A DNA stretch of 64,000 nt from an uncultured bacterium (GCA_963726455.1 CAVSCK010000004.1:1056001-1120000), one strand, 5' to 3'. Positions 29,499-49,244 are shown, numbered from the stretch's first letter. Made by a program: numbers and translations. Notes: generated from the letters alone by a model not told the origin.

Positions 29499-30463
29499 AT
29501 GTTGAAATCGACTATTTCAGGAAACTATCCCAAATTGCCTACGCAAAGGGGAGACGTTAACATTCGCCGCGTTTTGCATCGTTTCGACCAGGGCGAAATC
29601 GATCAGAAGGAAGTCGAGAACGCCTACGAAAAGGTCACCGCGCGCGTTGTCAACGAACAAATTGAGGCAGGAATTGATCTCCCCACTGACGGTCAAATCC
29701 GTTGGGACGACATTGTCACGCCGTTTGCGGGCAAAGTCGGCGGCTTCGAGATCAACGGCCTGATCCGGTGGTTCGACAATAACGTGTACTACCGCAAGCC
29801 GGTAATCGTTGACGACATCAAATGGCGGGAGCCGGTCGCGGCACCGGCATACAAGCAGGCAGCGTCTCTGACGGCCAAGCCACTTAAGGCCGTACTGCCG
29901 GGACCGTACAGCTTCGTGATGTTGTCGGAAAATAAGCATTACGCGAAGCGGGAGACTTTACTGAAAGACATGGCGACAATGTTGCGGGAAGAGGTCAATG
30001 CCCTGATTCAAGCGGGCTGTCGCCAGATCCAGTTCGATGAACCCTGCCTGGCTGATCATCCCGAAGATTGTGCAATGGCGGCAGATGCGGTAAACGGTAT
30101 GATAAAAGACTTTCCCGGCCTGTTTTGGATCAATTTCTATTTCCAAAGCATCGATAAGATAGCAAAAGAGCTGGAGCGGTTCAAAGTCAACGTGCTCTCA
30201 GTCGATTGCGTGTCGGCGCCGGGCAACTTTGAGATACTGCTTCAGTATGCCAGTCACGTACTCCCTGTTTTGGATTATTCGACGCGCGAAATATCAAGCT
30301 TGAAGACGAGAATGGCTTGCGCCGTATGTACGGCAGGATTGCCGAGCGCTATCCCGATGCTTACGTCAGTTCCTCGTGCGGACTGGAGTTTTTGCCGCAC
30401 GTAAATGCGTTGGAAAAGGTGAGACTATTGGGCCGCACAGTCAGGGAATTCCGTGGAGAGTAA
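29499..30463 (+). CDS. Split cobalamin-independent methionine synthase, N-terminal non-catalytic half (frameshift near 30260)
   Basis: TDGQIRWDD, RWFDNNVYYRKP, KAVLPGPYS, IQFDEP; continues GLFDARN...SSCGLEFLP; HxC zinc motif replaced by NFY. Confidence 0.78.
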
Positions 30464-30467
30464 GATC

Positions 30468-31434
30468 ATGTTGCCTACCACAACCGTGGGAAGTTTTCCC
30501 AAACCGGATTATTTGCAGAAGGCGCGAACGCAGTTTTCAGCCGGCAAACTGACTGAGGCGGACTTACGAGCGCTGGAATTGCAGGCGACCCGCGAAGTTG
30601 TGAGGCAACAGGAAGAAGTCGGGCTGGACATACTCGTTCACGGTGAGATGGAACGCGGCGACATGACGACCTACTTCGCGGAGAAGTTGGTAGGCATGGG
30701 AATCAGCGACCTCGTGAGATCATACGGCAACCGGTATTATCGCAAGCCGATCGTTGAGGGCGCGCTGCAACGTCCGGCGCCTATGACCGTGGAGAGTGTT
30801 CAACTATACGCAGTCATTGACATCCAAGCCCGTCAAAGGCATGCTCACCGGTCCGTACACCATGTGCGACTGGTCGTTCAACACCTACTACGAGACGAGG
30901 CGCGAAGTCGTGCTGGCGTTCGCAAGATTGTTGCATGACGAGGTTGCCGACCTGGAGAAGGCGGGAGCAAAGTATATACAGATCGACGAACCGGCAATTT
31001 CGACACGTCCGGAGGAGCTTGATCTGGCTATCGAAGCGATGGGAATAGTGACCAACGGCATCAGGGCGAAGACGATTTCGCATATCTGCTATGGAGATTT
31101 CAAGACGATCTATCCGCACATTCTCGACTTACCGGTCGATCAGCTTGATCTGGAGTTTGCCAATTCGGGATATTCCAACCTCGACATCTTCCGCAAGCCG
31201 AAATTCCGTAAAGAGATCGCGTTTGGTGTGCTCGACATTCACAGCCATCGGGTCGAAAGCGTCGACGAAATCGTGGCGGGTATTCGCAAGGGGCTGGATG
31301 TATTTGATGCGGACAAGATGACTATTGATCCTGATTGCGGCCTCAAAACACGCACCACTGAAGAAGCATTCGCTAAATTGCGCAATATGATAGCCGCCGT
31401 TCGACAGGTAAAGGCGGAACTGAATTTTAGCTGA
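30468..31434 (+). CDS. metE: Split cobalamin-independent methionine synthase, catalytic half (frameshift near 30795)
   Basis: LPTTTVGSFP, GLDILVHGEMER, KGMLTGPYT, IQIDEPA; zinc ligands HICYG, LE, DPDCGLKT. Confidence 0.88.
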
Positions 31435-31443
31435 TCGCCGATT

Positions 31444-33267
31444 ATGAATCCATTCATCGCGAGAATCAGGGAGGGTCCGCTTTTGGGCGACGGCGCCATG
31501 GGCACTTACCTGTACGCCAAGGGCGCATCTGCAACACGCTGCTTTGACGAACTCAACATCACAAATCCGCAATTGGTTGGGCAGGTTCACGATGATTATA
31601 TCGCCGCCGGCAGTGAACTGGTCGAAACCAACACCTACGGCGCCAATCGGCAGAAACTCGCGCAGCACGGCTTGGCATCGTTTGCGCGCGATATAAACCT
31701 GAAGGGGGCGAAGATCGCCCGCGATCGTCGCGAGGCGTCCGGCAAGGACATCTACATAGCCGGATCGATTGGACCAATCGGCAAACGCGTTGGTCACCAC
31801 AGCGGCATAACCAAAGCCGATGCGCGCAGTGCATTTGCCGAACAGGCCGAAGCGCTCTTGGAAGGCGGTGTCGATCTGTTCATGGTGGAAACCATTGCCG
31901 ATGTGGAAGAGTTGCGAATCGCCGTCGAGGAAATCCGCAGGATTTGCAGTCTACCGGTCGTCGCGCAGTTGACGATTACAGATGACCTGACTACGATCAA
32001 TGGTGACACCCCTATTGATCTGCTTGAAGCAGCGCGCGCACTCAAGATAGAAGTGATCGGCGCAAACTGCTCAGTCGGTCCGCAACGATTATATGACTTC
32101 GTATCCATCCTGCGGGCGACCTCCGACTTCATTTTGTCCGCACAACCGAATGCCGGCCAACCCCGCTACTATGAAGGGCGATTCTTCTATGTTTCCTCGC
32201 CCGATTACTTCGCGGAGTATTGCCTCAAATTCCTAAGTCTGGGCGTTTCGCTAATCGGCGGCTGCTGCGGTACAACGCCGGAGCATATCCGCGCCATGCG
32301 CAAAGTATTTGATTCTTACAAGCGAGTCAGCACCGAGTCGTCAGTAACTGCGATTGCGGAACCTCCGAAAAGGCCGGAGCGGGCCGCGCCGACGGCGCGC
32401 GTGTCCAATTTCGCGTCCAAGTTGGGGAACAAATTTGTCGTGTCGGTTGAAATCGATCCTCCCAGAGGCGCTAATCCGGAAAAGCTGTTGAACGCCGCCG
32501 TCAAACTCAGAGACTCGGGCGTTGATGCCGTCAACGTTGCCGATTCGCCGATGGCGCGCGTACGGATGAGCTGCCTGGCGATGGCGGGGTTGATCACCGA
32601 TCGCGTCGGTTTGGATGTGATCCTGCATTTCACCTGCCGCGACCGCAACCTGATGGGACTCCACGCCGATCTGATCGGAGCACATGCTCTTGGAATACGT
32701 AACGTTCTGGCACTGACCGGCGATCCGCCTTCACTCGGAGACTATCCAAACGCGACTGCCGTCTACGATGTCGATGCCATTGGACTGGTCGAGATCATCA
32801 GCAAGTTGAACAACGGCACCGATCTCGCCGGCAACGCGCTCGGTTCACACACGGAATTCTCGATCGGCGTCGCGATCAATCCCACGGCGGACAATCTCGA
32901 CGTTGAACTGGAACGACTGAAGCGCAAGATCGCTGCCGGTGCGCAGTTTGCCATGACGCAGCCGATGTACAAACTTGATATTCTGGAACGATTCCTTACG
33001 AAAGCGCAGAAGTTCGGGATTCCCACATTGCTCGGATTGTTGCCGTTGCAGTCGTATCGACATGCCGAGTTCCTCCATAACGAAGTACCCGGAATCGACA
33101 TCCCGCGCGAAACGCGCGACCGCATGAGCCACGCCGGGAAAGACGCCGCACAGGTCGGAATCGAGACTTGCCGCGATCTGTTGCACCAGGCCAAAGGTCT
33201 CGTGCAGGGTGCTTATCTGATGCCTTCCTTCGGCAGATATGAAACGATACTGCAAGTTTTAGAGTGA
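31444..33267 (+). CDS. yitJ: Bifunctional homocysteine S-methyltransferase / 5,10-methylene-THF reductase (YitJ-like)
   Basis: DGAMGT, ETNTYGAN, GANCSVGP, GGCCGTTPEHI; C-terminal MTHFR (VEIDPP, HFTCRDRN, LALTGDP, AMTQP). Confidence 0.9.
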   Translation: MNPFIARIREGPLLGDGAMGTYLYAKGASATRCFDELNITNPQLVGQVHDDYIAAGSELVETNTYGANRQKLAQHGLASFARDINLKGAKIARDRREASGKDIYIAGSIGPIGKRVGHHSGITKADARSAFAEQAEALLEGGVDLFMVETIADVEELRIAVEEIRRICSLPVVAQLTITDDLTTINGDTPIDLLEAARALKIEVIGANCSVGPQRLYDFVSILRATSDFILSAQPNAGQPRYYEGRFFYVSSPDYFAEYCLKFLSLGVSLIGGCCGTTPEHIRAMRKVFDSYKRVSTESSVTAIAEPPKRPERAAPTARVSNFASKLGNKFVVSVEIDPPRGANPEKLLNAAVKLRDSGVDAVNVADSPMARVRMSCLAMAGLITDRVGLDVILHFTCRDRNLMGLHADLIGAHALGIRNVLALTGDPPSLGDYPNATAVYDVDAIGLVEIISKLNNGTDLAGNALGSHTEFSIGVAINPTADNLDVELERLKRKIAAGAQFAMTQPMYKLDILERFLTKAQKFGIPTLLGLLPLQSYRHAEFLHNEVPGIDIPRETRDRMSHAGKDAAQVGIETCRDLLHQAKGLVQGAYLMPSFGRYETILQVLE

Positions 33268-36965: not shown

Positions 36966-37442
36966 TTACTTACTCACGGTCTTGGCGGCAATCCAATTCT
37001 TCACCGCAGTTAAGGCCGTTTCCACTGATTTCTCGACTTGCGGCGTCATTTGTTCGCCGAGAGTTTCAACATCCTGCGCCTCAACTGCCAACACCTGAAT
37101 GTCTTTGGGCATCGCCATCTGCAGTTGTGTTCCGAGTTCAATGGCGGTTGGCAAATTGATCTGGTGGCTGTTGATGAGATTGTACGACGGCGTCAACGCA
37201 CCGGCGGGGAAAAAATGAACCGTGCCCGGCCGGGATTTGCCGGTTATGATCGCATCGACAATGAGAACCGCCTTGCGGCCTTTCAACAAATCCAACAATC
37301 CGAATCCGGCGGTCGGGGCAAATATCACTTCGACCATATCGTGATCGAGGCCGTTTTCATTCAGCCGGCGGGCAACCGCAGGGCCGAATGAGTCATCCGA
37401 AAGTATGTCGTTACCCAGGCATAAGATGAGAAGTGGTGTCAA
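36966..37442 (-). CDS. Hydrogenase maturation protease
   Basis: LCLGNDILSDDSFG, LIVDAI, NSHQ; overlaps the mvhA stop by 4 nt. Confidence 0.9.
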   Translation of the reverse strand: MTPLLILCLGNDILSDDSFGPAVARRLNENGLDHDMVEVIFAPTAGFGLLDLLKGRKAVLIVDAIITGKSRPGTVHFFPAGALTPSYNLINSHQINLPTAIELGTQLQMAMPKDIQVLAVEAQDVETLGEQMTPQVEKSVETALTAVKNWIAAKTVSK

Positions 37443-38923
37443 ACGTTCCTCCGAGCAGTCTGGATTATTTCACCGGTTGCAGCATCATGTATGATTAATT
37501 CCAGCGGCATTTCGCCGGGAAGCGTGTGAGTCGCGCAACCAAAACAGGGATCGTACGCACGAAACGCCATTTCAATTCGATTGAGAATTCCGTCCGTAAC
37601 TGTCACGCCCTTCTTGATCAATCCCTCGGCGGCTTTCTTGATCGACATAGATATCGGCGCGTTGTTGTTGGTGGTGCCGACGATCAGGTTAGCTTCAGTG
37701 ACTATGCCGTTCCTGTCGGTCTTGTAGTGATGTGTCAGCGTCCCGCGCGGAGCTTCCACGATTCCGACCCCTTCGCCGACGATGCCGGTTGGCGGTTCGA
37801 GGATTTTGTCAGACGTGATTTCGTCGTCCTGCGCCTGCTCCAAAGTCGCCTCGGCGGCAAACATCAGTTCGACCACGCGAGCCCAATGAGTGGCCAACGT
37901 CGAATGAATCGGAGTCTTGCCGGTGCGGTCACCGGTCAGAGTTTCATACATGCGTTCGTATTCGGCCTGCGCCAGCGGGGTCGCCATACCGTCTGCCACG
38001 TTGCAGCGTGACAGCGGCGTCGCTTTGTACACACCCGAATCCATGCCGTCGACGAATCCCTTCCAGCCGACCTTCTTCAGGTACGGATACTTGAGATAGC
38101 TGTACGGCTCGACGTGTTCGGCGACATATTCGAGATAGTCCTTTGGCTCATATTCGGCGTGCTTGCTGCCGTCGGGAGCAGTAACTCTCACCTTGCCGTC
38201 ATAGAAGTTGGTCTTGCCGTTCGCATCCACCAGACCCATGTTGTAAGTCTTGTGCGTGAACATGTCGGAAATGATCAGATCGACATAACCCTTGTTCGCG
38301 AGCACGATGTCGTTCAACACCTGAATCGTGAACTTGGCGAACTCGACCATGCCCTTCGCCAGCTCGATAATCTCCTGCTGTTCTTGCTTGGTAACACGCT
38401 TGGTATTGCCGCCAGGAACAGCCGTTACCGGATGCACCTTCTTGCCGCCGATGATTTCGATTACACGTTGTCCGGCGGCACGCTGAGCAATAACTTTCTT
38501 GCCGGCATCAATTCCGACCTTGGCTACGACGCCGAGGATATTTCGTTCAGCCGGCGGCGCATCAGGACCGCAAACGAAATCGGGGCCACCCAGCGCATAG
38601 AAATGCGTGGTGTGGTCGCCCGCGTAGAACGCGTTGTACATCAATTCGCGCAACTTACGAGCTGCACTCGGAATCGTAACACCGTACACTGCGTCCGCTG
38701 CCTTTGCGGCAGCGAGATGATGCGCATCGGGACAGACGCCGCAAATGCGTGTCGTGATGCGGCACATTTCCTCGACCGGACGACCCTGCGCGAATTTCTC
38801 GAAGCCGCGCAGTTCCGGAACCTGGAAATAGCAGTTCGCCAAGCCGCCGTCATCATTGACGAACAGATGAATCTTGCCATGCCCTTCGAGACGGGTGATC
38901 GGGTCAATCAGTATCTGTTTCAT
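37439..38923 (-). CDS. mvhA: [NiFe]-hydrogenase large subunit, group 3c type
   Basis: DPITRLEGHG, RICGVC, EAPRGTL, AYDPCFGCATH plus cleavable C-terminal extension. Confidence 0.93.
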   Translation of the reverse strand: MKQILIDPITRLEGHGKIHLFVNDDGGLANCYFQVPELRGFEKFAQGRPVEEMCRITTRICGVCPDAHHLAAAKAADAVYGVTIPSAARKLRELMYNAFYAGDHTTHFYALGGPDFVCGPDAPPAERNILGVVAKVGIDAGKKVIAQRAAGQRVIEIIGGKKVHPVTAVPGGNTKRVTKQEQQEIIELAKGMVEFAKFTIQVLNDIVLANKGYVDLIISDMFTHKTYNMGLVDANGKTNFYDGKVRVTAPDGSKHAEYEPKDYLEYVAEHVEPYSYLKYPYLKKVGWKGFVDGMDSGVYKATPLSRCNVADGMATPLAQAEYERMYETLTGDRTGKTPIHSTLATHWARVVELMFAAEATLEQAQDDEITSDKILEPPTGIVGEGVGIVEAPRGTLTHHYKTDRNGIVTEANLIVGTTNNNAPISMSIKKAAEGLIKKGVTVTDGILNRIEMAFRAYDPCFGCATHTLPGEMPLELIIHDAATGEIIQTARRNV

Positions 38924-39900
38924 TGCTGCACCCTCCTTAACATCGAAGTCGGCAAGCTGAACCGATAGAACGTTCCCAGGGGATCAGGAATTGTATCCAG
39001 AATCTGTTCGACCTCCTGCTCGTCGATGGAATCTATCACACTCGCCAATGCCGACGCCATCTTGGCGCCCTGATCGCGCACGTTGGACGGCAACCCGTAG
39101 CAACCGCGACACGGCACACCCGCTTTGACGCACTTTGCGCCACATCCTGAACGCGTCGCCGGACCAAGGCAGACAATCCCCTGCTCCATCAGGCAAAGGT
39201 CGGGATCGGTGACCTTTTCAAAGGGACGAATGAACTTCTTGATCTTCTTGACATTGCGCTGGCGCGGGCATTCATCGCAACAGGATTTTTCGCTGGCGCC
39301 CAGCACCGTGCCTTTCGGCGGCAGCGGCTTGCTGTTCTTGAGAATGTCAACGACGGCATCAATCACAGCCGCGATCTGATTTGACTGTGGCGGACAACCG
39401 GGAATGATGTAGTCGACGTCCACGACCTGCGGAAGTGTGCGGACGGTGTTCCACAGGAACGGAATATGAACCATGCCTTCAGCAACTTTCACTTCCGGCT
39501 GCGGCATGATGCCGTTGCCCGGTTCCAGTGACGGCGACAGTTTGTAAACATATTCCATGATCGATTGTTTGTCATAGAAGTTTGCCAGTCCGGGAATACA
39601 ACCTTCGGAAGCGCAACTGCCAAAGGCGCACAGCACGACCGATTTGTCCCGCAGCAGGCGCGCGATTTCATAATTCTCGTCACTGCGAATCGCGCCATTG
39701 AAAAGAGTGAGTGTGATTTCTTTGTCCTGCATCTTGCGAACGTCGTCATACTTGAAATCAAGGGCGCAAGGCCAGAACACAATGTCGAAGAAGTCGGCGA
39801 CCTCAAGGATCTTCGCCTCGATATCGAGAATCGCGACATCGCAGCCCCCGCAGGAGGAGGCCCAGTATATTGCTAGTTTCGGTTTTGCCATCTTGCTCAC
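38920..39900 (-). CDS. mvhG: [NiFe]-hydrogenase small subunit
   Basis: SSCGGC, FGSCASEG, PGCPP, CCDECP, CLGPATRSGCGAKC...PCRGCYG. Confidence 0.92.
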   Translation of the reverse strand: MSKMAKPKLAIYWASSCGGCDVAILDIEAKILEVADFFDIVFWPCALDFKYDDVRKMQDKEITLTLFNGAIRSDENYEIARLLRDKSVVLCAFGSCASEGCIPGLANFYDKQSIMEYVYKLSPSLEPGNGIMPQPEVKVAEGMVHIPFLWNTVRTLPQVVDVDYIIPGCPPQSNQIAAVIDAVVDILKNSKPLPPKGTVLGASEKSCCDECPRQRNVKKIKKFIRPFEKVTDPDLCLMEQGIVCLGPATRSGCGAKCVKAGVPCRGCYGLPSNVRDQGAKMASALASVIDSIDEQEVEQILDTIPDPLGTFYRFSLPTSMLRRVQQ

Positions 39901-40355
39901 TCCCCTGCCGCGACGGCAGCAGCTTCCGCCTGTTCAGGTACGAACGCCCATTCCTGCAAACGTAGCGGTCCGAGCGCACGAATCTGCGCGGTAAAGCTGT
40001 CGACCACTTCCTGAAAACGGGCTCCTTCAGATGCCGACACCCATTCGAGACGCAGGCGTTCCGGGGAGATACCCATGCCTTTCAGAATCCGCTTGGTGAT
40101 TGCCACGCGACGCATGCACTTGTGATTCCCCTCGACATAGTGGCAGTCACCGAAATGGCAACCGCACAAAAGCACGCCGTCAGCGCCGGCGCGAAACGAA
40201 TCGAGAACAAACCCGGGATCGACGCGGCCGGAACACATCACGCGCACCGTCATCACATTAGGGGCATACTTCATGCGCGCGGTGCCGGCCAGATCGGCTC
40301 CGGTATAACTGCACCAATTGCAGAGAAATCCGACAATACGTGGTTCGAAACTCAT
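39897..40355 (-). CDS. mvhD: Hydrogenase iron-sulfur subunit ([2Fe-2S] adaptor)
   Basis: GFLCNWCSYTGADLAG, VMCSGRVDP, GCHFGDCHY, WVSASEG. Confidence 0.95.
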   Translation of the reverse strand: MSFEPRIVGFLCNWCSYTGADLAGTARMKYAPNVMTVRVMCSGRVDPGFVLDSFRAGADGVLLCGCHFGDCHYVEGNHKCMRRVAITKRILKGMGISPERLRLEWVSASEGARFQEVVDSFTAQIRALGPLRLQEWAFVPEQAEAAAVAAGE

Positions 40356-42115
40356 GTAAGCATCCCCTCGATCTGAGCATAGATTTGTTCATCGGTGAAT
40401 TGGCGGGCCATTATCGCGCCCGAAGGACAGGCGGCTACGCAAGTGCCGCAGCCCTTGCACTGAGCTGAATTCACGACGCTCACTTTCTTGGCTTCGTCAT
40501 AGCTGACCGCAGTGTACGGGCACATATCGTTGCAGATTTTGCAGCCGCTGCAGAATTCCTCCATGATTTCAGCGTAGGCCGCATCCATCATGATCTCGCC
40601 TTGTGCCATCAATTTCATCGCCTGTGCAGCGGCAGCCCCGCCCTGTGCGACGCTGTCGGGAATATCTTTGGCGCCCTGGCATGCTCCGGCCAAGAAAATG
40701 CCGTCGGTAGTCGTCGACACCGGAGCGAGCTTCGGATGCGCTTCGATAAACCAGCCATCAGCGCCGGTGGAGATATTGAATTTGCGCCCGAACTCCTTGG
40801 CATCCTTGCGGGCCTCCAAAGCCGTGCAGAGAATGACCATATCGACCGGTATTTCTCGATACTTGCCGATCAGCGTGTCTTCGCAACGGACGATCAGATG
40901 ACCTTCCTCGTCGCGGCGATAGCCCGATGGCACAACCTCTGCGCCCTTGCCGCGAATAACATTGACGCCTTCTTCGAGAATGCGAGCGTAGAATTCTTCG
41001 TATCCCTTTCCGAAGGCGCGCATGTCGATGTAAAGTTGGTATACCTCGGCAGAGGTCTTCTCTTTTACGAGATGCGAGAATTTCAACGCGTACATGCAGC
41101 ACACGCGGCTGCAATATTTATGGTGGTCATGATCACGGCTGCCAACACAATGCAGAATCGCAATCGCCCGCGGTTCTTCGCCGTTTTCGAGCACGATCTT
41201 GCCGCCGGTCGGTCCCGCGGCATTGTTCATGATCTCGAACTCTTCGGAAGAAATCACATTCGGTATTTTGCCGTAGCCATACTGTTTCATTGGCGTCGGA
41301 TCAAAACTGTCGAACCCGGTTGCAATCACCACAGCCCCAACTTCGACTTCTTCGGTTTTCGGGCCGTCGCCATAATCAATGCATTCTTTGGGACAGACCT
41401 TAGAACAAACCATGCAGCCGCCGGTCTTGTAGTGAATGCAGTTTTCACGTACGATCTGCGGGACGTTGGGCACCGCCTGTCGGAAAGGCAGGGTGATTGC
41501 GGCATTCGGCGACAAGTTCATCTCCTGATGGACGATGAAGCGATTTTCGATCTCTTCCATCTTGATGTATCCCGTCGGACAATGTTTGGCACAGGCGCCG
41601 CAGAGAATGCAGGAATCGGAATCGCGGCCGAAGGGCGTCGAAATATCGCGTTTGGCGCCCCGGTTGACGAATGCCAGCGCGTGCGCGCCGACAACTTCGT
41701 CGCAGATACGGACACACAGCCCGCACAGTATGCACGTGTAATTCCCCGTTCCCCAGCGCGGCTCGGGAATGCCAAGTTGTTCGGCGAGTCGCTGCAACAC
41801 AGGCACAGGCGAGCAGTTGGCCATCAGCATTTCCAAATTCGTCCGCCGAGCGTTGATCACGCGCGGCGTGTCCGTCACGATTTCGAGTCCATCCCAAACC
41901 GGGTAGTTGCAGGCCGTCACGATTTTCGACCAGCCACCTGCGCTGCGCGCCTCGACGCAACAGATGCGGCAAGCGGCGTACGGCACCATATAGGGATAGT
42001 AACAGAGCGTCGGAATCTCTACACCGATCGACTTGGCCGCCTCCAGAACATAAGTACCGTCGTCGACCTCGATCTCCTGACCGTCAATAGTAATTTTCAC
42101 TTTGTCCATAGCCAT
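40352..42115 (-). CDS. Fusion of NuoG/HoxU/HydA-N-like Fe-S domain to the C-terminal half of HdrA
   Basis: N-terminal IPTLC..ACRIC..TAC [2Fe-2S] plus CILCGLCVRIC and CILCGACAKHCP; then HdrA PFRQAVP, VIATGF, HCVGSRD..CSRVCCMYALK, DMRAFGKGYEE, GACQGAKDIP, C-terminal 2x[4Fe-4S]. Confidence 0.9.
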   Translation of the reverse strand: MAMDKVKITIDGQEIEVDDGTYVLEAAKSIGVEIPTLCYYPYMVPYAACRICCVEARSAGGWSKIVTACNYPVWDGLEIVTDTPRVINARRTNLEMLMANCSPVPVLQRLAEQLGIPEPRWGTGNYTCILCGLCVRICDEVVGAHALAFVNRGAKRDISTPFGRDSDSCILCGACAKHCPTGYIKMEEIENRFIVHQEMNLSPNAAITLPFRQAVPNVPQIVRENCIHYKTGGCMVCSKVCPKECIDYGDGPKTEEVEVGAVVIATGFDSFDPTPMKQYGYGKIPNVISSEEFEIMNNAAGPTGGKIVLENGEEPRAIAILHCVGSRDHDHHKYCSRVCCMYALKFSHLVKEKTSAEVYQLYIDMRAFGKGYEEFYARILEEGVNVIRGKGAEVVPSGYRRDEEGHLIVRCEDTLIGKYREIPVDMVILCTALEARKDAKEFGRKFNISTGADGWFIEAHPKLAPVSTTTDGIFLAGACQGAKDIPDSVAQGGAAAAQAMKLMAQGEIMMDAAYAEIMEEFCSGCKICNDMCPYTAVSYDEAKKVSVVNSAQCKGCGTCVAACPSGAIMARQFTDEQIYAQIEGMLT

Positions 42116-42119
42116 ACTC

Positions 42120-44129
42120 CTACACCACCTCCGCCGCTATTTTTTTGATGGGCGGTTGCCACAACTCACGCGCACGTTCTTGCAGTTTGTCACCGTCACC
42201 ACGCTTGACACGTTTGATTGAGTTGTAGCGGCAAATCTGGTAACAGGCGCCGCATTGAATGCACTTGTCCTGCAGGATGTAGTGCAGACGCTTCGGTTCG
42301 CCGACGATCGCGCTGGTCGGGCATGATTTCAGGCACGCGTGACAACCATTGCAGGTGTTGTCGATGGCGTGCGACACCAGGTCTTTGCAGACACCGGCCG
42401 GACAGCGTTTGTCGATGACATGTGCCAGATATTCCTGACGGAAATAGCGGATGGTAGACAACACCGGATTCGGCGCGCTGCCGCCCAACTGGCACAGACT
42501 GGTGTCGATAATTACCTGCGATAGTTCTTCGAGATACTCGATGTCCTCGATCGTACCCTTTCCTTCACAAATCTTTTTGAGGATGTTCAACATCACGACC
42601 AATCCCTCGCGACAGGGAACGCATTTGCCGCAGCTCTCTTCCGTGAGGAAATTGATGAAGTATCGCGCGACATCGACCATGCAGGAATCCTCGTCCATCA
42701 CGATCATTCCTCCCGATCCCATCATCGATCCGGCCTTGGTCAATTCATCAAAGTCTATGGGCAGATCGAGCAGGCTGACCGCCTCGTCTTCCTCGCGGAT
42801 ATCGCCATGAGCTACCATACTGGCGTGAATTTTCGCTTCGGCAGTTTCGACAATGAGCGTGCCGCCCGACGGTCCGCCTGTCTGCACGGCCTTGAAGCGC
42901 TTGCCACCCGGCACACCGCCACCGATATCGTACAGAATTTCGCGCAAGGTAATTCCCATCGGTACTTCGACCAGGCCGGTGTTGTTGATCTTGCCGGTCA
43001 AAGCAAAAACCTTGGTACCTTTGGAACCCTCGGTGCCGATTCCGGCAAACCACGCCGAACCGCGCTCGATAATTGGTGGGACGTTCGCCCAGGTTTCGAC
43101 GTTGTTCAAGTTCGAGGGTTTCTCCCACAGTCCCGCTTCGACGGTGTGAATGTACTTGGCGCGCGGTTCGCCGACCTTGCCTTCCAGCGAAGCCATCAGC
43201 GCCGTCGACTCACCGCAGACAAACGCGCCGCCGCCGCGCGAAATCTCAATATCGAAACCAAAGCCGGTTCCGAGAATATTCTCGCCGAGCAGTCCGTAAT
43301 CGCGCGCTGCTTTGAGTGCGATCGCCAGGTTTTTGACTGCCAACGGGTACTCATTGCGGACATAGACAAAACCTTCGTGGCTGCCAATGGCGTAAGCGCC
43401 GATGATCATTCCTTCGATGACCTGATGCGGATTGCCTTCCAGCAGGGAGCGATCCATAAAAGCGCCCGGATCACCCTCATCCGCGTTGCAGATCACATAT
43501 TTGGGTTGTCCTTTGGCTGCCCGGCACGATGCCCATTTCTTTCCGGCCGGGTAGCCACCACCTCCGCGGCCGCGCAGACCGGATTTCTTGATCTCATCTA
43601 TGACCTGTTCGGCTTTCATCGTGGTTAATGCCTTGACAACCGCTTGATATCCGCCGAGCAGGATGTAGTCATTGATCGCGGTCGGATCCATCACGCCGTT
43701 CTTGCCGAAGATGATTCGCTGTTGCTTCTTGTAGAAAGGTATATCCTTCTCGTGTTTGATTATCTGGTTGGTTTGGGGATCGCGATACAACAGTTTATTG
43801 ACCAGTTGACCGCCTTTGACCGTCTGCTCCCAGATCAACTTGGCATCTGCCGGCTTGACGCGCTGGTAGAAGACTCTCTGGGGATGAACTACAACCAACG
43901 GTCCGCGCTCACAGAATCCGTGGCAGCCGGTTGACTTGATCTCAACTTCATTTTCCAGGCGATCCTTCTCGCATTCATCGCGGAACGCTTTCAGAACGCT
44001 CTCGCATCCACACGCCAGACAACCGGTCCCAGAGCAAACGGTGACCATCGTCTTGTTCGCGTTGCGGCTCTTTTCAAGATGATCTTTCAGCGCCAACAGG
44101 TCGGCGGTGGTTTTTAGTTTCTGGATCAT
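42120..44129 (-). CDS. NuoF/HydB-like NAD(H)/FMN subunit
   Basis: N-terminal CSGTGC..GCHGFC [2Fe-2S]; GLRGRGGGGYP; NADEGDPGAFMDR; FVCGESTA; GGPSGG; ESCGKCVPCREG; C-terminal 2x[4Fe-4S]. Confidence 0.93.
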   Translation of the reverse strand: MIQKLKTTADLLALKDHLEKSRNANKTMVTVCSGTGCLACGCESVLKAFRDECEKDRLENEVEIKSTGCHGFCERGPLVVVHPQRVFYQRVKPADAKLIWEQTVKGGQLVNKLLYRDPQTNQIIKHEKDIPFYKKQQRIIFGKNGVMDPTAINDYILLGGYQAVVKALTTMKAEQVIDEIKKSGLRGRGGGGYPAGKKWASCRAAKGQPKYVICNADEGDPGAFMDRSLLEGNPHQVIEGMIIGAYAIGSHEGFVYVRNEYPLAVKNLAIALKAARDYGLLGENILGTGFGFDIEISRGGGAFVCGESTALMASLEGKVGEPRAKYIHTVEAGLWEKPSNLNNVETWANVPPIIERGSAWFAGIGTEGSKGTKVFALTGKINNTGLVEVPMGITLREILYDIGGGVPGGKRFKAVQTGGPSGGTLIVETAEAKIHASMVAHGDIREEDEAVSLLDLPIDFDELTKAGSMMGSGGMIVMDEDSCMVDVARYFINFLTEESCGKCVPCREGLVVMLNILKKICEGKGTIEDIEYLEELSQVIIDTSLCQLGGSAPNPVLSTIRYFRQEYLAHVIDKRCPAGVCKDLVSHAIDNTCNGCHACLKSCPTSAIVGEPKRLHYILQDKCIQCGACYQICRYNSIKRVKRGDGDKLQERARELWQPPIKKIAAEVV

Positions 44130-44647
44130 GCCGCCTCCGTTCCGCTTGCGGATTTCTTCTTGTGCAGCAACTCATCAAGCATCTTGTCAACCTTGGTGAC
44201 CGTCATGTGGCCGTAGTAGACTCCGTTTGCCGTCACCAACGGACCCAGGGCGCAGGCGCCCAGGCAGTTGACAGTTTCGAGACTCACTTCCCCGTCAGGA
44301 GAGGTGTCTCCTGACTGAAGTCGAAGATCGCGCTCCAGTTTGTCGACAATCACTTTCGCCTGCCGAACGTGACAGGCCGTGCCCGTGCAGACGCAGATAT
44401 GATTTCTGCCGGTCGGTTTGAGCGTGAAGGCGCGATAGAAAGTCGCGACACCGTAAATTTGAGCCAGCGGCAGTTTCATGTTCTTGGACACTGCGCGCAA
44501 TGCGTCCTCCGGCAGATAGCGATAATGCTTCTGAATATCCTGAAGTATCATAATCAGCGCGGTCGGTTTGGCGCCATATTCGCCGACGATCTCTTCAATC
44601 TTGCTGTCGAGATCATAGGCGGTGTTAGCTGCAACTGTTATGGTCAT
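44126..44647 (-). CDS. NuoE/HydC-like [2Fe-2S] subunit
   Basis: LQDIQ..YLP, GVATFY, VCTGTACHV, NCLGACALGP. Confidence 0.93.
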   Translation of the reverse strand: MTITVAANTAYDLDSKIEEIVGEYGAKPTALIMILQDIQKHYRYLPEDALRAVSKNMKLPLAQIYGVATFYRAFTLKPTGRNHICVCTGTACHVRQAKVIVDKLERDLRLQSGDTSPDGEVSLETVNCLGACALGPLVTANGVYYGHMTVTKVDKMLDELLHKKKSASGTEAA

Positions 44648-45633
44648 GGCTTAACTCCTTCCAGCGCTTCTTCCGCAGTCGTCTCCACATTCTCCGGCAT
44701 CGGTTGCGCGCCGGTCAGAGGCGTCAGGTCGTGTTTTGGCCCCATCGACCACTTGTCCTGCACGTCCAGCAATCGCCCTTCGCGATAGACCAGATCGCCC
44801 AGGATCATGCGGCGATTCTGTGGATACGGCACGCTGGGACAGGCCTCATAGCATGAGCCGCAACTGTTGCACTTCAGCGGATCAACGTACCGGGCTTTCT
44901 TCTTGATCTTGACTTTGAAGTTGCCGATGTAGCCCTCGACGTTTTCGATCTCCGCGTAAGTCACCAGCTTGATGTTGGGATGCTTCCCGACCGAAACCAT
45001 CTTCGGCGTCAGAATGCAGGCAGCGCAATCGAGGGTCGGGAAGGTCTTATCAAAGTGTGACATGTGTCCGCCGATGGAAGCATCGCGTTCGACCAATATC
45101 ACCTCGTATCCGGCGTCCGCCATTTGAAGCGCGGCTTCAATACCTGCAATGCCCGCGCCAACGACCAGGACTCGGCGAGTAATCGGCACACGACGCATTT
45201 CCAGCGGTACCTGGTAGCGAACGCGCGCGACGGCAGCTTTGACGAGCGCTGTGGCTTTAGCCGTCGCGGCTTTGGGATCAATCGTCACCCAACTTACCTG
45301 TTCGCGCACGTTGGCCATTTCGAACAGGTAGCGGTTCATCCCGGCAACTTCCACCGCTTTACGGAAAGTATTTTCGTGCATCAGCGGGCTGCAGGCAGCA
45401 ACTACGACGCGATCGAGTTTGAGTTCCTTGATATCTTTCTGAATCATTTCCTGGCCGGGGTCGGAGCACATGAAACGATAATGTCTGGCGACCACTACGC
45501 CGGGGAGCGACTTGGCGGCCTCGGCGACTTTGGCGACATCCACCGTCTTGGCGATGTTGGTGCCGCAATGACACACGTACACGCCGATGCGCGGGATGCC
45601 GTTGCCGCCGCCAACCTTGAGATTGTCAGTCAT
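44644..45633 (-). CDS. hdrA: Heterodisulfide reductase subunit A, N-terminal half
   Basis: IGVYVCHCGTNI, CSDPGQ, AACSP, GAGIAG FAD motif, DKTFPTLDCAACIL, ARYVDPLKCNSCGSCYEACP, then stop. Confidence 0.9.
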   Translation of the reverse strand: MTDNLKVGGGNGIPRIGVYVCHCGTNIAKTVDVAKVAEAAKSLPGVVVARHYRFMCSDPGQEMIQKDIKELKLDRVVVAACSPLMHENTFRKAVEVAGMNRYLFEMANVREQVSWVTIDPKAATAKATALVKAAVARVRYQVPLEMRRVPITRRVLVVGAGIAGIEAALQMADAGYEVILVERDASIGGHMSHFDKTFPTLDCAACILTPKMVSVGKHPNIKLVTYAEIENVEGYIGNFKVKIKKKARYVDPLKCNSCGSCYEACPSVPYPQNRRMILGDLVYREGRLLDVQDKWSMGPKHDLTPLTGAQPMPENVETTAEEALEGVKP

Positions 45634-46511
45634 GCCCTAACCTCCTTTGCACAGGCGATTAGCTTGTCCGGCGAGATCAGAAAATCGTTCAATCCCATCC
45701 GGGCGGGCGGAACTCCAAGCGCGACGCCGACCAGGTGGCTGAAATAGACGATCGGTATGTTGAAGTTCCGGTCGAAGGCCTGATTTATCTTCTTCTGATA
45801 GGCCTCCAGATTCATTTGGCAAAGCGGACACGCGGTGGCAATCAGCTCCGCCCCATTATCCACAGCCGCTTGCAAGAGAGTCATATTCAATTTCAGGGCG
45901 ACACTTTCTTCGGTAGTCATCAACATGCCGCCGCAGCAGCGCACTTTGCCGGGAAAGTTGGTTACTTCGGCGCCAAGCGCGCGCAACAGATTGTCCATCG
46001 TGATTGGATCATCGACGTCGTCGAAGAAGCCATAAGGCCTTACAATCTGGCAGCCGTAGTAAGGCGCGACTTTGATACCCGTCAGTGGATTGACGACTTT
46101 CGCTTTGATAGCTTCAATGCCGGTGTCGTTGACGAGAATATCGACTGGGTGACGTACCTCGGTCTTGGCATCATACGAGAGATTGGCGGCGCCAAGCGCT
46201 TGATTGATCTTATCGCGCTCTTTCGGATCCCAGCAAAGATGCCGATTGGTCTTCCGCAGAATTGTGAAACAACTGCTGCAGGGAGCGCAGACGTCCATTC
46301 CCATTTTCTGCGCGATCGCGAGATTACGGGCGCTGATCGAAAAGGCGACCGTGTTGTTGACGGACATGTACATCGTGGCGCCGCAGCAGTTCCAGTCTTC
46401 AATTTCGTGCAGGCCGATGCCCAGCAACTTGAAAACCTCGCGGATCGACTTGTCGTACGGACTCGCTGCCGTTTCCAAGCTGCAACCGGGATAGTAGGCG
46501 TAGTCCGACAT
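45630..46511 (-). CDS. hdrB: Heterodisulfide reductase subunit B
   Basis: YYPGCS, two CCG domains (WNCCGA..PCSSC; YYGCQ..RCCGG..ACPLC). Confidence 0.93.
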   Translation of the reverse strand: MSDYAYYPGCSLETAASPYDKSIREVFKLLGIGLHEIEDWNCCGATMYMSVNNTVAFSISARNLAIAQKMGMDVCAPCSSCFTILRKTNRHLCWDPKERDKINQALGAANLSYDAKTEVRHPVDILVNDTGIEAIKAKVVNPLTGIKVAPYYGCQIVRPYGFFDDVDDPITMDNLLRALGAEVTNFPGKVRCCGGMLMTTEESVALKLNMTLLQAAVDNGAELIATACPLCQMNLEAYQKKINQAFDRNFNIPIVYFSHLVGVALGVPPARMGLNDFLISPDKLIACAKEVRA

Positions 46512-47098
46512 CAGTTCTCTCCTAGCTGGTTTGCGCGTTTGATAATTGCGCGAACTTCGTTGATGCGTTTGATCCTGCTGGGTAACACCGCCAGCCGTCC
46601 GCGGCGAAACATGGCCAAACCGAAGCCCGCCATTGTGAACATTTTCACAAAATTGGACTTTAGTAGATACCGAACAACGAGTCCAAGCTCGTGGTTTCTG
46701 CCGTAACGGTAGACGTTGTCTATGAACGCCTTGGACAGCGAATGCACCGGAAATTTGGCCGGATAAATCTTACGCGACATCGCGATACGCTTGAGCGCGT
46801 ACAATGTGTCGGTCACCCTGATTCCCGAAGGACAGCGGACGGTACACGAGTAACACGAAGCGCAGATCCAGATCGTGCGGCTATGAAGAATATCTTCGAT
46901 CCGTCCAGCACGAAACAACGCCACCGTCTGTCGCGGCGTGATGTCCATCGCATATGACACTGGACAGGCGCCACTGCAGGTGCCGCACTGAATGCACGAC
47001 TTGATCTTGTCGCCTTCCGGGACGTTCTTCAACTGTCCCCAGAAAGCCGATCGTAACTCGGCCTCGCTCTTGGGAAAAGGTTCGATTTTTTCGATCAT
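46511..47098 (-). CDS. hdrC: Heterodisulfide reductase subunit C
   Basis: CIQCGTCSGACP and WICASCYSCTVRCP; TGATG overlap with hdrB. Confidence 0.92.
   Translation of the reverse strand: MIEKIEPFPKSEAELRSAFWGQLKNVPEGDKIKSCIQCGTCSGACPVSYAMDITPRQTVALFRAGRIEDILHSRTIWICASCYSCTVRCPSGIRVTDTLYALKRIAMSRKIYPAKFPVHSLSKAFIDNVYRYGRNHELGLVVRYLLKSNFVKMFTMAGFGLAMFRRGRLAVLPSRIKRINEVRAIIKRANQLGEN
46633..46650. promoter_or_regulatory. Perfect Rex-type operator inside hdrC
   Basis: ttgtgaa-catt-ttcacaa. Confidence 0.55.
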
Positions 47099-47223
47099 AC
47101 ATACTCCCGCATCTCGGAAAGTTCGGAACCGTTATCGCTGCCGCGACAATGCTCCGGCACACGTCTTCCCCGCGTGCTCCAGAAGGTACACTAAACTTGT
47201 CTTTCATCGTTTAGTGTGTCTAT

Positions 47224-47268
47224 ATTCTACTCCCCGCACCGGCACGTGTCAAGAGATTTTTTTCACAA
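47224..47268 (-). promoter_or_regulatory. Sigma70 promoter of the hdr-nuo-mvh operon with abutting Rex half-site
   Basis: TTGACA (47252-47247)-N17-TAGAAT (47229-47224); ttcacaa half-site at 47262-47268. Confidence 0.7.
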
Positions 47269-47561
47269 AGTCATCATATTGTTTGTGTCGGCACTCTCCC
47301 GCAATCACCTTAACTGGCGCATGTCAGAACACAGGTTACGCCCTCCGGTTTTTCACCTACATCGCCGCTTCCTGGCACAAGTATCCGGCAATTGAGCTTA
47401 CCGATGCAGCCCAAATCCGATCTCTTTTTTGCGTTTTCAGAACCCAGAATTGTGATTGCGTATTACATTGCCGCGCAATATATAAGCTTTGTATTTTAGT
47501 CGGGCAGCGGGCAGGATGGGAACTTCACCGGAAAGGACGCGTAAGCTCTTTATACAACGCT

Positions 47562-49244
47562 ATGGACGCCAAGCAATACACTACAGAAAGCCGATTCTCG
47601 GAATCGCGGACGAAAACCGTCAGCGAGTTCTATGACGAAGTCAAGGGGCTCCTCCAGACTAACGCACTGGCAGTACTGATCTACCATCGGCTCCGCATGG
47701 AGCTGGAGGTTCGACTGTTCATGCCGTCCGAACTGCGGACGTTTTCTCTGCGCGAGATTGCCCCCAACGAGTTCGAGGAATTGGCTCTTGCCGACCTTCC
47801 GCCGCGAAACCCGGTCTATCTGGCTTTGTGCGACATTGTGGGTTATTGCCCCTCCGGTCACAAGGCATATCTCGTTCACGCCGAAGGGTATATATCGGCC
47901 ATGTTCCTGCTTTTTGCGCAGGAAGACCTGCAACCATTATCGGAATATCTGGAGCGTCACATTGAGCTATTCTCCTTGAAGCTCCACCATGCGATTCTCG
48001 TCGACGCTTACCACCGCAGCATGCTGGAACTGGAACTGCTTCAGGAAACTGGCGAAGTACTCTCCATGTCATTCCACATGGAGGAGGTATTCAAGGGAAT
48101 TGTCAGTGCCATACAGAAACTGCATCCGTTCGACGCACTGGGTATCTTCATTCTGAGCCCCAATAACGAGACCATGGAAGAGATCTTCTCAAAGGGTTAC
48201 GAATCCGAATCATCACGGCACATGCTGGAAATAAAGGCCGATCGCGGCCTGGTCGGCTGGGTCACCAAGACCGGCGAGCCGGTGATTGTGCCCAACGTCC
48301 AGGAGGATCCCCGATACGTCAATACCCGGGAAACCACTCACTCAGAGCTGGTCGTGCCGCTCTATTCCGGCAAACAGGTAATCGGCGCCTTTAATTTGGA
48401 GTCCGATCAATATGACGCTTATTCCCCGCTCGATCTGGAAATGGTGCGGGCGTTTGCCAACCAGGTCTCGCTATCAGTTACGCGGGCACGGCTTTACAAG
48501 GAACTCGTGATCAAGAATCGCATTGACGATCAACTGGAAGTGGCGCGGGACATTCAAAAATCTTTCCTTCCCGCCGGGCCACCGAAATATACCGGATTCG
48601 ATTTTGACGCGATCAATATCTCGTCTGAGCAGGTTGGAGGCGACTATTTTGACTTTATCCCGATTGTCGACCAGCAATTGGGGGTCACAATAGCCGATGT
48701 TTCCGGCAAAGGGCTGCCCGCGTCATTAATCATGGCGTCGTATCGCGCGTCTCTTATAGCAGAGATAAGGAACAACTATGCCATCCGGACAATCATGCGC
48801 AAAGTGAACAATCTGATCTGTGAATCTGTAGAACGAGGAAACTTTGTCACGGCTGTCTATGGCGTCTTGGATACCAGAAATCGGGTGTTCACTTTCTCCA
48901 ACGCCGGTCATAATCCACCATTTGTCTTGCGCAAATCAGGGGAAGTCGAATTCCTCACGGATGGTGGGCTTATCTTAGGAATTATGCCGGATCGCGACTA
49001 TCAGGAGCGCCCGCTTCACATTGGCACCGGCGATATTCTGGTATTGTATACCGACGGAGTTACCGATTCAGAGAATGAGAAGGGGGATCAGTTCGGCACG
49101 GAGCGGCTGGTGGAATTAGTTCGATTAAACAAGCGGTTGCCGGCCAGGGAAATCAGAACCAGAATAGTCACGGCCATTGACCAATTTCGCACCGGTGACG
49201 GCCAGCCGGATGACCTGACGCTGGTCGTAATCAAGTCTGAATAG
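47562..49244 (+). CDS. GAF + PP2C (SpoIIE/RsbU-like) phosphatase
   Basis: GLVGWV..SELVVPL GAF; VGGDYFD, IADVSGKG, NAGHNPP, LYTDGV, DDLT; ORF extension upstream of 47562 is likely non-coding. Confidence 0.9.
   Translation: MDAKQYTTESRFSESRTKTVSEFYDEVKGLLQTNALAVLIYHRLRMELEVRLFMPSELRTFSLREIAPNEFEELALADLPPRNPVYLALCDIVGYCPSGHKAYLVHAEGYISAMFLLFAQEDLQPLSEYLERHIELFSLKLHHAILVDAYHRSMLELELLQETGEVLSMSFHMEEVFKGIVSAIQKLHPFDALGIFILSPNNETMEEIFSKGYESESSRHMLEIKADRGLVGWVTKTGEPVIVPNVQEDPRYVNTRETTHSELVVPLYSGKQVIGAFNLESDQYDAYSPLDLEMVRAFANQVSLSVTRARLYKELVIKNRIDDQLEVARDIQKSFLPAGPPKYTGFDFDAINISSEQVGGDYFDFIPIVDQQLGVTIADVSGKGLPASLIMASYRASLIAEIRNNYAIRTIMRKVNNLICESVERGNFVTAVYGVLDTRNRVFTFSNAGHNPPFVLRKSGEVEFLTDGGLILGIMPDRDYQERPLHIGTGDILVLYTDGVTDSENEKGDQFGTERLVELVRLNKRLPAREIRTRIVTAIDQFRTGDGQPDDLTLVVIKSE

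Follow-up and report, generated by a model that had tools for sequence, protein, structure and literature searches.

An Mvh-Hdr operon with HdrA split around a Bfu-type module, and a proposed cascade of two bifurcation sites, in an uncultured bacterium

Results

Gene content of the operon

The DNA described here is a 64,000-nt stretch from an uncultured bacterium (GCA_963726455.1 CAVSCK010000004.1:1056001-1120000), referred to below as the window. Its minus strand carries ten tightly packed open reading frames (ORFs) at 36966-47098, in the order hdrC, hdrB, hdrA-N, bfuC, bfuB, bfuA::hdrA-C, mvhD, mvhG, mvhA and a maturation protease gene. HdrA, which is a single polypeptide in MvhAGD-HdrABC, is thus encoded in two pieces, hdrA-N and the 3' part of the bfuA::hdrA-C fusion, and a module of the Bfu/HydABC type lies between them. 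The window proteins were named with Pfam and NCBIfam profiles and, for HdrA, BfuB and the BfuA part, with alignments to solved structures (Table 1). The MvhA translation contains ICGVCPDAH (L1) and AYDPCFGCATH (L2), which correspond to the group-3c motifs ICGxCxxxH and AYDPCxxCATH as defined in the relevant part of PMC6085437.

A first-pass annotation, made from the sequence alone, had reported this gene order, with overlapping start and stop codons and one 4-nt gap. The ORF coordinates agree, since there are seven 4-nt overlaps, one 1-nt overlap and one 4-nt gap (42115/42120, bfuB/fusion), and the reading frames are open in all ten genes.

Table 1. Features of the operon region, with window coordinates.
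Feature	Coordinates	Strand	Product or description	Evidence
Promoter-like site TTGACA-17-TAGAAT	47224..47252	-	sigma-70-like, ~125 nt upstream of hdrC	11/12 consensus positions
hdrC	46511..47098	-	195 aa, 2x[4Fe-4S] subunit	Pfam Fer4_8 + Fer4_17
hdrB	45630..46511	-	293 aa, two CCG domains (disulfide-reducing site)	Pfam CCG, 2 stretches, E 2.3e-27
hdrA-N	44644..45633	-	329 aa	Pfam FAD Rossmann + one Fer4; 5odc_A alignment
bfuC	44126..44647	-	173 aa, NuoE/HydC-like [2Fe-2S] thioredoxin-like	Pfam 2Fe-2S_thioredx, E 5.2e-48
bfuB	42120..44129	-	669 aa, NuoF/HydB-like	Pfam Complex1_51K, NADH_4Fe-4S, N-terminal 2Fe-2S_thioredx, C-terminal Fer4 dicluster
bfuA::hdrA-C fusion	40352..42115	-	587 aa	Pfam Fer2_4, Fer4 dicluster, Pyr_redox_2 C-terminal part, C-terminal Fer4 dicluster
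BfuA part of fusion	41576..42115	-	aa 1-180	colinear with WorA 9mqx_A
HdrA-C part of fusion	40352..41575	-	aa 181-587	alignment to 5odc_A
mvhD	39897..40355	-	152 aa, [2Fe-2S] adaptor	Pfam FlpD, E 3.2e-53
mvhG	38920..39900	-	326 aa, [NiFe]-hydrogenase small subunit	Pfam Oxidored_q6
mvhA	37439..38923	-	494 aa, [NiFe]-hydrogenase large subunit	Pfam NiFeSe_Hases
Hydrogenase maturation protease gene	36966..37442	-	158 aa	Pfam HycI

HdrA is complete in two complementary pieces

The proposal that HdrA is split in two was examined by aligning both pieces to the HdrA of Methanothermococcus thermolithotrophicus (5odc_A). HdrA-N residues 14-272 align with 5odc_A 4-262 (E 1.6e-102), and fusion residues 165-586 align with 5odc_A 242-650 (E 6.2e-107). 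The two pieces overlap on 5odc_A by ~20 residues that hold one CxxCxxCxxxCP motif and nothing else. As both alignments meet at this one motif, the break is located at the start of the inserted ferredoxin domain of HdrA, and the proposed split stands. The same succession is seen on the NCBIfam HdrA2 (HdrA-MvhD) profile of 777 positions, which is matched by hdrA-N at 1-256, by the fusion at 262-640 and by mvhD at 647-774.

HdrA-N comprises the N-terminal cluster domain, the GxGxxG motif for flavin adenine dinucleotide (FAD), DKTFPTLDC and the first half of the FAD (TrxR-like) domain. It ends with motif I of the inserted ferredoxin domain (C255/258/261/265, invariant in 25/25 orthologues), followed by a 64-residue tail. 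In the HdrA-C part come the linker, motif II (C226/234/237/241), the remaining half of the FAD domain and, at the C terminus, a 2x[4Fe-4S] domain. Both motifs that the first-pass annotation had singled out, DKTFPTLDC in HdrA-N and CSRVCCMYALK in HdrA-C, are present in the translations. Within the latter, K345 of the fusion, which is conserved in at least 90% of 27 orthologues, aligns to the Lys of CCMYAMK in 5odc_A (K409 by alignment count). A passage of the 2026 preprint on class II benzoyl-CoA reductase (BCRII) describes a conserved Lys at flavin N5 (BamE Lys280) as a hallmark of the Hdr-type bifurcating FAD.

Every domain of HdrA is therefore present, but on two chains, with BfuC, BfuB and BfuA encoded between them. 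In the host genome (3.64 Mb, 5 contigs, 100% complete) the fusion has only one match, which makes it the sole HdrA-C copy, and no second HdrA-N was found there.

The C-terminal tail of HdrA-N (residues 266-329; 44644-44838) has no counterpart in solved HdrA and shows the conserved pattern PSxPxPxxRRLILGxxVFKEGR...GPxHDLTxLTGAQPMPE. Across the orthologous loci described below, it is present where hdrA-N abuts bfuC and absent or shortened in L032, L033 and L036. This tail may be an adaptor for the Bfu module.

The inserted module resembles bifurcating Bfu enzymes

The insert had been described in the first-pass annotation as an NAD(H)-linked module of the NuoEFG'/HydCBA' kind. Its link to NAD(H) is retained here, and its type is refined to a Bfu module with a small WorA-like BfuA, not a plain NuoEFG. 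This is illustrated by the architecture of BfuB, which combines an N-terminal [2Fe-2S] domain, a core for flavin mononucleotide (FMN) and NAD(H), an N3-type [4Fe-4S] cluster and a C-terminal 2x[4Fe-4S] ferredoxin domain. The closest solved chains are 7t2r_B, from A. mobile NiFe-HydABCSL (E 9.7e-228), and 9mqx_B (E 3.2e-223), and residues 4-638 align with 8a6t_B, a T. kivui-type HydB (E 2.8e-217). The alignments to 8a6t_B and 7t2r_B run end-to-end; they take in CxxxxC...CxxxC at the N terminus, RCPAGVC, and the two CxxCxxCxxxC motifs at the C terminus.

According to section 5 part 1 of Schut 2022, clusters B2-B5 are absent from non-bifurcating NuoF homologues. BfuB possesses the FMN/NAD(H) core together with the extra B2-B5 clusters by which Schut 2022 recognises a Bfu enzyme, namely the N-terminal [2Fe-2S], the C-terminal 2x[4Fe-4S] and the B2/Zn site, and BfuC provides the accompanying thioredoxin-like [2Fe-2S] subunit. 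Because the extra domains (the N-terminal [2Fe-2S] and the C-terminal dicluster) are present, we assign BfuB to the bifurcating type and not to NuoF. A plain NuoEFG or HoxEFU diaphorase was considered and rejected in view of the same additional cluster domains.

The third component is the N-terminal part of the fusion. The [2Fe-2S]+2x[4Fe-4S] domain of NuoG/HydA-N type that had been placed in front of HdrA-C is recovered by Pfam, by structure alignments and by colinearity with WorA, residues 4-191 of the fusion matching 9mqx_A 3-191 (E 1.2e-34). The ligands are C38/49/52/69 for the A1 [2Fe-2S] cluster and C128/131/134/138 plus C169/172/175/179 for the A2/A4 dicluster; all of these, together with C226/234/237/241 of motif II, are invariant in 27/27 orthologues. 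The His-ligated cluster (A3) is missing, as in WorA. The portion of the 9MQX description that deals with WorA, a subunit of A. mobile WorABCSL, lists A1 [2Fe-2S], A2 and A4, no A3, and places electron entry at A4. Overall, judged by its sequence, the inserted module is a full Bfu/HydABC-type module with a small WorA-type BfuA (A1, A2, A4).

An insert of ~26 residues (ETAEAKIHASMVAHGDIREEDEAVS...) lies at residues ~428-453 of BfuB (42771-42848), with the FMN/SLBB part on one side and the helical [4Fe-4S] part on the other. It is missing from solved HydB, WorB and NiFe-HydB chains, and the alignments are interrupted there. The host genome contains two more BfuB-like genes, at G000:C1:43018-44847 (53% identity) and at G000:C5:403075-404738 (54-63%, in pieces). 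The match to the latter is spread over four separate frames or pieces, and this copy may be frameshifted.

The Fe-S junction and a model of the two HdrA pieces

Four motifs of the CxxCxxCxxxC type flank the HdrA break, enough for two ferredoxin-like domains with two clusters each. By homology, the C128 and C169 motifs belong to the A2/A4 domain of BfuA, matching CpI 146-206, 7t2r_A 138-213 and WorA. Motifs I and II of the inserted ferredoxin domain have their counterparts, also by homology, in the HdrA-N motif and the C226 motif of the fusion. The linker that joins these two motifs in HdrA has its homologue in fusion residues 181-225. The inserted ferredoxin domain would accordingly be rebuilt in trans, directly beside A4.

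A complex model of HdrA-N with the fusion reached an ipSAE of 0.82 (runs 0.82, 0.82 and 0.83), compared with 0.28 for the best of 3 controls, and since HdrA structures have already been solved, this score shows that the pair resembles HdrA and does not prove binding independently. That mark is attained by 58/80 solved complexes and by 2/110 mismatched pairs. At least 84% of the contacts agree between runs, and partner pLDDT is at least 81. The confident interface involves fusion residues 169-178 and parts of 127-147 and 224-241, facing HdrA-N 254-291; residues 266-291 of the HdrA-N tail contact the fusion in this model. The two halves are thus modelled as one HdrA fold.

Conservation of the split and of the gene order

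We then considered how widely this arrangement is distributed. The 120 database clusters that rank best as relatives of the fusion all measure 579-604 aa, are 66-90% identical and carry Fer2_4. Among 61 loci taken from species genomes, 60 gave matches, and a full-length fusion is present in 47 of these 60. Directly upstream of these 47 fusions stands bfuB in 44 cases, hdrA-N without bfuCB in 2 (L032 and L035) and no sequence in 1, and mvhD follows directly downstream in 44/47. The hdrA-N/bfuC/bfuB/fusion order recurs beyond this assembly: all ten genes occur in the order of the window in 26/47 loci, the rest being cut by contig ends, fragmented by frameshifts or interspersed with extra genes. 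The hdrA-N gene abuts bfuC in 35 loci and is separated from it by 3-4 kb of other genes in 5. Names given in the record titles include Zixibacteria, KSB1, Calditrichota, Acidobacteriota and others, and titles labelled Ignavibacteria or Alphaproteobacteria also occur. When the host phylum was sampled evenly with 201 genomes, one full-length open match was obtained in each of 40 genomes and broken matches in 2 others.

As a rival explanation we considered an artefact of assembly or annotation, or an hdrA in decay (pseudogenised). We found nothing in its favour and regard its probability as practically negligible. The first-pass annotation had considered an artefact unlikely on account of the overlapping junctions and the missing frameshifts. 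That judgement is upheld here, because the split and the gene order recur in dozens of independent assemblies (47/60 loci and 40/201 phylum genomes carry the fusion), all frames are open, the Cys ligands are invariant on both sides of the break and this is the only HdrA of a complete genome. The artefact was therefore rejected.

In L036 (2411-5178), as well as in L033 and L042-L044, the 3-4 kb between hdrA-N and bfuC encode CBS+HATPase, PHP-domain and small HATPase_c proteins. CBS/HATPase, PHP and HATPase genes accompany HydABC operons.

Sister operons and phylogeny of HdrA-C

From the phylum sample, 20 additional matches were hand-picked to represent each type of match. Nine of them have an unsplit HdrA of ~670 aa in hdrC-hdrB-hdrA-mvhD-mvhG. 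Four have a HdrA of 1135-1161 aa in hdrB-hdrA-mvhD-mvhG, and by their length and match pattern these look like the HdrL type. A divergent bfuB-fusion-mvhD-mvhG arrangement was observed in three, three others belong to a distant HdrA-like type taken as outgroup, and the last, L090 (in G086), is identical to L057, described below. The name HdrL, for a HdrA with an NfnB/GltD-like insert, reportedly comes from Desulfobacterium autotrophicum genomics.

Such an insert is seen in a Desulfobacterales protein of 1214 aa (L046), in which the two Cys motifs of the inserted ferredoxin domain enclose an NfnB/GltD-like module (Fer4_20 + Pyr_redox_2). The same NAD(P)H module stands in frame between these two motifs in a Zixibacteria protein of 1243 aa (L057). 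No such insert was detected by Pfam in either HdrA piece of the window. The L057 operon (L057:5646-9377) reads hdrC-hdrB-[1243-aa HdrA]-mvhDGA, and within its HdrA the HdrA-N tail leads in frame into the NfnB/GltD-like module, after which come the BfuA A2/A4 dicluster and HdrA-C.

A maximum-likelihood tree of HdrA-C (49 rows, 412 columns, midpoint root only) places 27 rows in a main split clade (support 95/99*) within which L057 and L090 are nested. Because of this position, L057 looks like a re-joined derivative in which NfnB has taken the place of BfuC, BfuB and the A1 domain. The canonical HdrAs group together in a single clade (100/99*), itself within a starred 12-row clade otherwise made up of split or HdrL types. 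The four architecture labels need 6 changes on this tree, the minimum possible being 3. A single origin of the split was considered and is unsupported by the tree, on which the label "split" alone needs 5 changes and the starred branches force at least 4. The sequences thus point clearly to a plug-in that was exchanged several times, or to recombination of the region. Given that HdrA is unsplit in some sister operons, and in others has an NfnB-like insert in this domain or adjacent to it, the inserted ferredoxin domain appears to be a recurrent plug-in site.

Candidate partners in the host genome

The host genome contains one DsrC-family gene, in a locus at G000:C4:1339565-1341890 (L097:5565-7890); the gene product ends in CKIAGLPKPDGCV with both C-terminal Cys. 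Downstream of dsrC are a 213-aa ORF without Pfam match and a 448-aa Fer4_8+CCG gene of DsrK/HdrD-like type. This DsrC/DsrK-like locus is a possible thiol/disulfide partner for Hdr.

No [FeFe] hydrogenase was found in the host genome. One other [NiFe] hydrogenase is present, in a group-3b-like operon with hypF (G000:C5:~97000-105500, L098). Its genes encode Fer4_22, cNMP-binding and NAD_binding_1/DHODB Fe-S proteins, small and large subunits, a protease and HypF; the operon has a group-3b look, with an unusual cyclic-nucleotide-binding gene inside.

Other observations on the window

Several operon products score under the cut-offs of the corresponding NCBIfam models, namely HdrC (72.6 bits, cut-off 160 for CoB_CoM_SS_C), HdrB (193 bits, cut-off 345 for CoB_CoM_SS_B), MvhG (219 bits, cut-off 450 for the VhuG model) and BfuC (HoxE/NuoE models). 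The maturation protease, with 116.6 bits, is above the cut-off of TIGR00072. The promoter-like site of Table 1 is a consensus match only, the scan having given 9 sites compared with a shuffle mean of 6.1.

Divergent from the operon is a GAF+SpoIIE phosphatase gene whose longest ORF (46992-49244, plus strand) starts inside hdrC on the opposite strand. Its true start is probably further downstream, the domains beginning only at residue ~363. This phosphatase could be a regulator beside the promoter region of the operon.

Elsewhere in the window, adjacent GatD_N+Asparaginase and GatB_N/GatE-type genes (16232-19589, minus strand) look like an archaeal-type GatDE pair in a bacterium. A cobalamin-independent methionine synthase (Meth_synt_1/2) is read as two ORFs of 301 aa and 212 aa with a gap of ~390 nt (29499-31434, plus strand), which may be a broken or split metE, and the next gene (31444-33267) encodes a homocysteine S-methyltransferase fused with MTHFR.

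Discussion

A proposed electron path with two bifurcation sites

We propose that the operon probably encodes one cytoplasmic Mvh-Hdr-Bfu complex, in which Bfu is attached to the low-potential arm of HdrA and two bifurcation sites are placed in series. The first-pass annotation had also envisaged a single complex with an NAD(H)/FMN module on this arm and possibly two bifurcation sites. The cofactor set of BfuB, the fusion point, the conservation and the HdrA-fold model all favour that proposal.

Section 4 of the 2026 BCRII preprint describes HdrA-type wiring as an input through the C-terminal ferredoxin domain and an MvhD-like adaptor to FAD; the high-potential output goes to an HdrBC-like subunit and the low-potential output passes through the inserted ferredoxin domain. 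Since the covalent link of BfuA is with that inserted domain, and MvhAGD and HdrBC are available for the input and the high-potential output, we place Bfu on the low-potential output. In such a complex, H2 would be oxidised at MvhA, and the electrons would reach the HdrA FAD via MvhG, the C-terminal ferredoxin domain of HdrA and MvhD. Bifurcation at this FAD would send the high-potential electron to HdrC and the CCG clusters of HdrB, where a disulfide would be reduced, DsrC of the host being a candidate substrate. The low-potential electron would take the inserted ferredoxin domain as its exit and from there move directly into the fused BfuA, along A4, A2 and A1. The BfuBC core would then be the second bifurcation site, sharing out electrons to NAD+ and ferredoxin (Fd).

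The stoichiometry of this scheme would be 4 H2 + 2 RSSR' + NAD+ + 2 Fd(ox) -> 4 thiols + NADH + 2 Fd(red). With the potentials given in the pertinent part of Schut 2022 (H2 -414 mV, heterodisulfide -140 mV, NADH about -280 mV, Fd about -500 mV), the net reaction would be more exergonic per H2 than the canonical one, and the enzyme could therefore run at lower H2 or hold ferredoxin more reduced.

Other placements and directions of the Bfu module

BCRII of Geobacter metallireducens, Bam[(BC)2DEFGHI]2, is the closest precedent. The first-pass annotation had named it as a case in which Hdr and NuoEFG-like modules co-occur as separate subunits; the co-occurrence is confirmed, and the wiring differs. 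Both systems contain HdrA-type and HydBC/Bfu-type modules, an MvhD-like adaptor and an HdrBC-like subunit, those of BCRII being described in the relevant parts of the preprint. In BCRII, however, Bfu is the input (BamI to the C-terminal ferredoxin domain, then BamF and FAD), whereas here it is fused to the inserted ferredoxin domain. The inserted domain of BCRII feeds the tungsten subunits BamBC, with ETF as the other output, and no hydrogenase takes part. The HdrA-type subunit of BCRII, BamE, is a fused dimer, whereas the present HdrA is split, not duplicated, and the hydrogenase holds its input.

A second input of the BCRII kind would mean that NADH + Fd(red), or H2, feeds the HdrA FAD, and that the low-potential electron goes to some other acceptor. 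BCRII uses BamGHI in exactly such a donor role toward the HdrA-type BamE, and among described Hdr-Bfu combinations Bam-Bfu stands alone. Here, however, BfuA has its covalent link with the inserted ferredoxin domain, and the input side is already taken by a complete MvhAGD, whose genes follow immediately downstream. Moreover, no AOR-family or BamC-like gene was found in the operon by ORF and Pfam analysis, so that a BamB/BamC-like output subunit is lacking. We consider a second input quite improbable.

The same complex might also run in reverse, with NADH + Fd(red) confurcated at BfuBC and the resulting electrons confurcated at the FAD with thiol electrons from HdrBC, H2 being released at MvhA. 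Bfu/HydABC enzymes are reversible and BamGHI is confurcating. In addition, since the host genome has no [FeFe] hydrogenase, NADH/Fd-linked H2 evolution would have to use a [NiFe] enzyme. On the other hand, those group 3c enzymes that have been characterised work as H2 oxidisers under the conditions of the cell, according to the relevant part of PMC11216029. Reversal would also leave HdrBC unexplained, a NiFe-Bfu hydrogenase being possible without Hdr (A. mobile HydABCSL, 7t2r), and thiol oxidation as a co-donor would seem to have no known physiological rationale. A reversed flow thus appears unlikely, and we retain H2 oxidation with Bfu on the low-potential output.

Several observations nevertheless weigh against this proposed cascade. 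The HdrA halves score 383 and 432 bits, far from the NCBIfam HdrA2 cut-off of 1100. The complex model covers HdrA-N and the fusion only, passes partly through likeness to solved HdrA, and its interface residues do not tell how the four Cys motifs are paired. Why a second bifurcation would be needed thermodynamically after an already low-potential arm is not obvious. Finally, the genomes of L032 and L035, which may be incomplete, gave no close BfuB (best identities 39% and 36%), and in some lineages such as these the BfuA-like domain may work without BfuBC.

These last two loci, with a split HdrA and the fused domain in an operon without bfuCB, would fit a BfuA-like domain that is a mere Fe-S extension of HdrA-C. 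BfuCB would then be separate or loosely docked, and a canonical Mvh-Hdr would reduce free ferredoxin. This is hard to reconcile with the presence of bfuB directly upstream in 44/47 fusions, only 4 nt away in the window, and BfuBC without BfuA or a third-substrate partner would be an orphan. We hold a mere extension to be very doubtful.

Relation to known systems

The operon shares with MvhAGD-HdrABC of hydrogenotrophic methanogens such as M. thermolithotrophicus (5ODC) all six subunit types in one operon and HdrA domains that align. In common are also mvhG and mvhD, encoded directly upstream of mvhA here, the group-3c motifs of MvhA, two CCG domains in HdrB, two [4Fe-4S] motifs in HdrC and the conserved flavin Lys. 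It differs in that HdrA consists of two polypeptides and the low-potential arm would continue into BfuA-BfuB-BfuC instead of having a free ferredoxin-binding end. The host, moreover, is bacterial, unlike these methanogens. For a related organism, Zixibacteria RBG-1, the pertinent sections of Castelle 2013 report that the coenzyme M (CoM) and coenzyme B (CoB) pathways are absent and annotate the Zixibacteria cluster simply as MvhADG/HdrABC.

Within the Bfu family (7T2R, 9MQX), BfuB is most similar to the B subunits of these enzymes, and BfuA shares the A1/A2/A4 set of WorA. The difference lies in the third-substrate module, which here would be the covalently attached low-potential arm of a second bifurcating flavoprotein and not a hydrogenase or WOR docked on BfuA. 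HdrL-type proteins likewise hold a pyridine-nucleotide-linked, potentially bifurcating module between the Cys motifs of the inserted ferredoxin domain, and their Zixibacteria form stands in the same hdrCB-...-mvhDGA frame. They differ in being single polypeptides with a FAD/NfnB-like insert, not an FMN/Bfu one. L057 nevertheless retains the HdrA-N tail and the BfuA dicluster, in keeping with its nesting in the split clade.

The first-pass annotation had not recognised this architecture as one already described. Our full-text literature searches, which did not cover the Appel 2021 HdrA review, likewise gave no description of a split HdrA with Bfu/NuoEF in an Mvh-Hdr operon. The Bfu types named in the sections consulted of Schut 2022 are Nfn, Fdh, F420, Wor, FdhFeFe, Bam, Codh, Por, Mbh, NiFe, Nuo and Rub. 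No Hdr/Mvh-Bfu type occurs in its section 5 parts 1-2 or in its ten mentions of HdrA, heterodisulfide or Mvh, the supplementary tables being outside this scope. The parts covered of PMC9012536, PMC7325909, the 2024 HdrA preprint, PMC5861303, PMC11216029 and PMC6085437 contain nothing on a split HdrA with Bfu, and the portion of PMC4046663 concerned with Desulfotignum describes nuoEFG-mvhD-hdrA clusters with no split. The available part of the 2026 BCRII preprint states that two distinct modules of flavin-based electron bifurcation in one supercomplex were previously unreported. Overall, the parts of the present system are known; the manner in which they are joined is new, and it is widespread.

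Biological significance

Flavin-based electron bifurcation is the route by which strict anaerobes obtain low-potential electrons without ATP cost. The operon suggests a second, differently wired combination of two bifurcators, common in uncultured sediment lineages. More tentatively, and with some doubt on our side, it may represent a second natural solution, besides BCRII, for coupling two unrelated bifurcation engines in one enzyme, with the opposite topology: a cascade through a shared Fe-S domain that serves as an exchangeable socket.

If this is true, the low-potential electron of the HdrA flavin would be bifurcated again by Bfu, and H2 oxidation, pulled by the disulfide, would charge both the NADH and the ferredoxin pools. 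Such a cascade could in principle work at very low H2 pressure or take an acceptor to a potential lower than that usual for ferredoxin. At the junction, one two-cluster ferredoxin-like domain would draw its ligands from each of the two chains, through motif I of HdrA-N and motif II of the fusion, a natural structural test case for how electrons are handed on from the low-potential arm of HdrA. The inserted ferredoxin domain would likewise offer a modular point of docking and, in evolution, a socket left empty, NfnB-like-filled or Bfu-filled several times. Genome-based calls of "group 3c Mvh-Hdr" in such bacteria would then need rereading, as H2 would be linked to NADH, ferredoxin and a thiol/disulfide couple.

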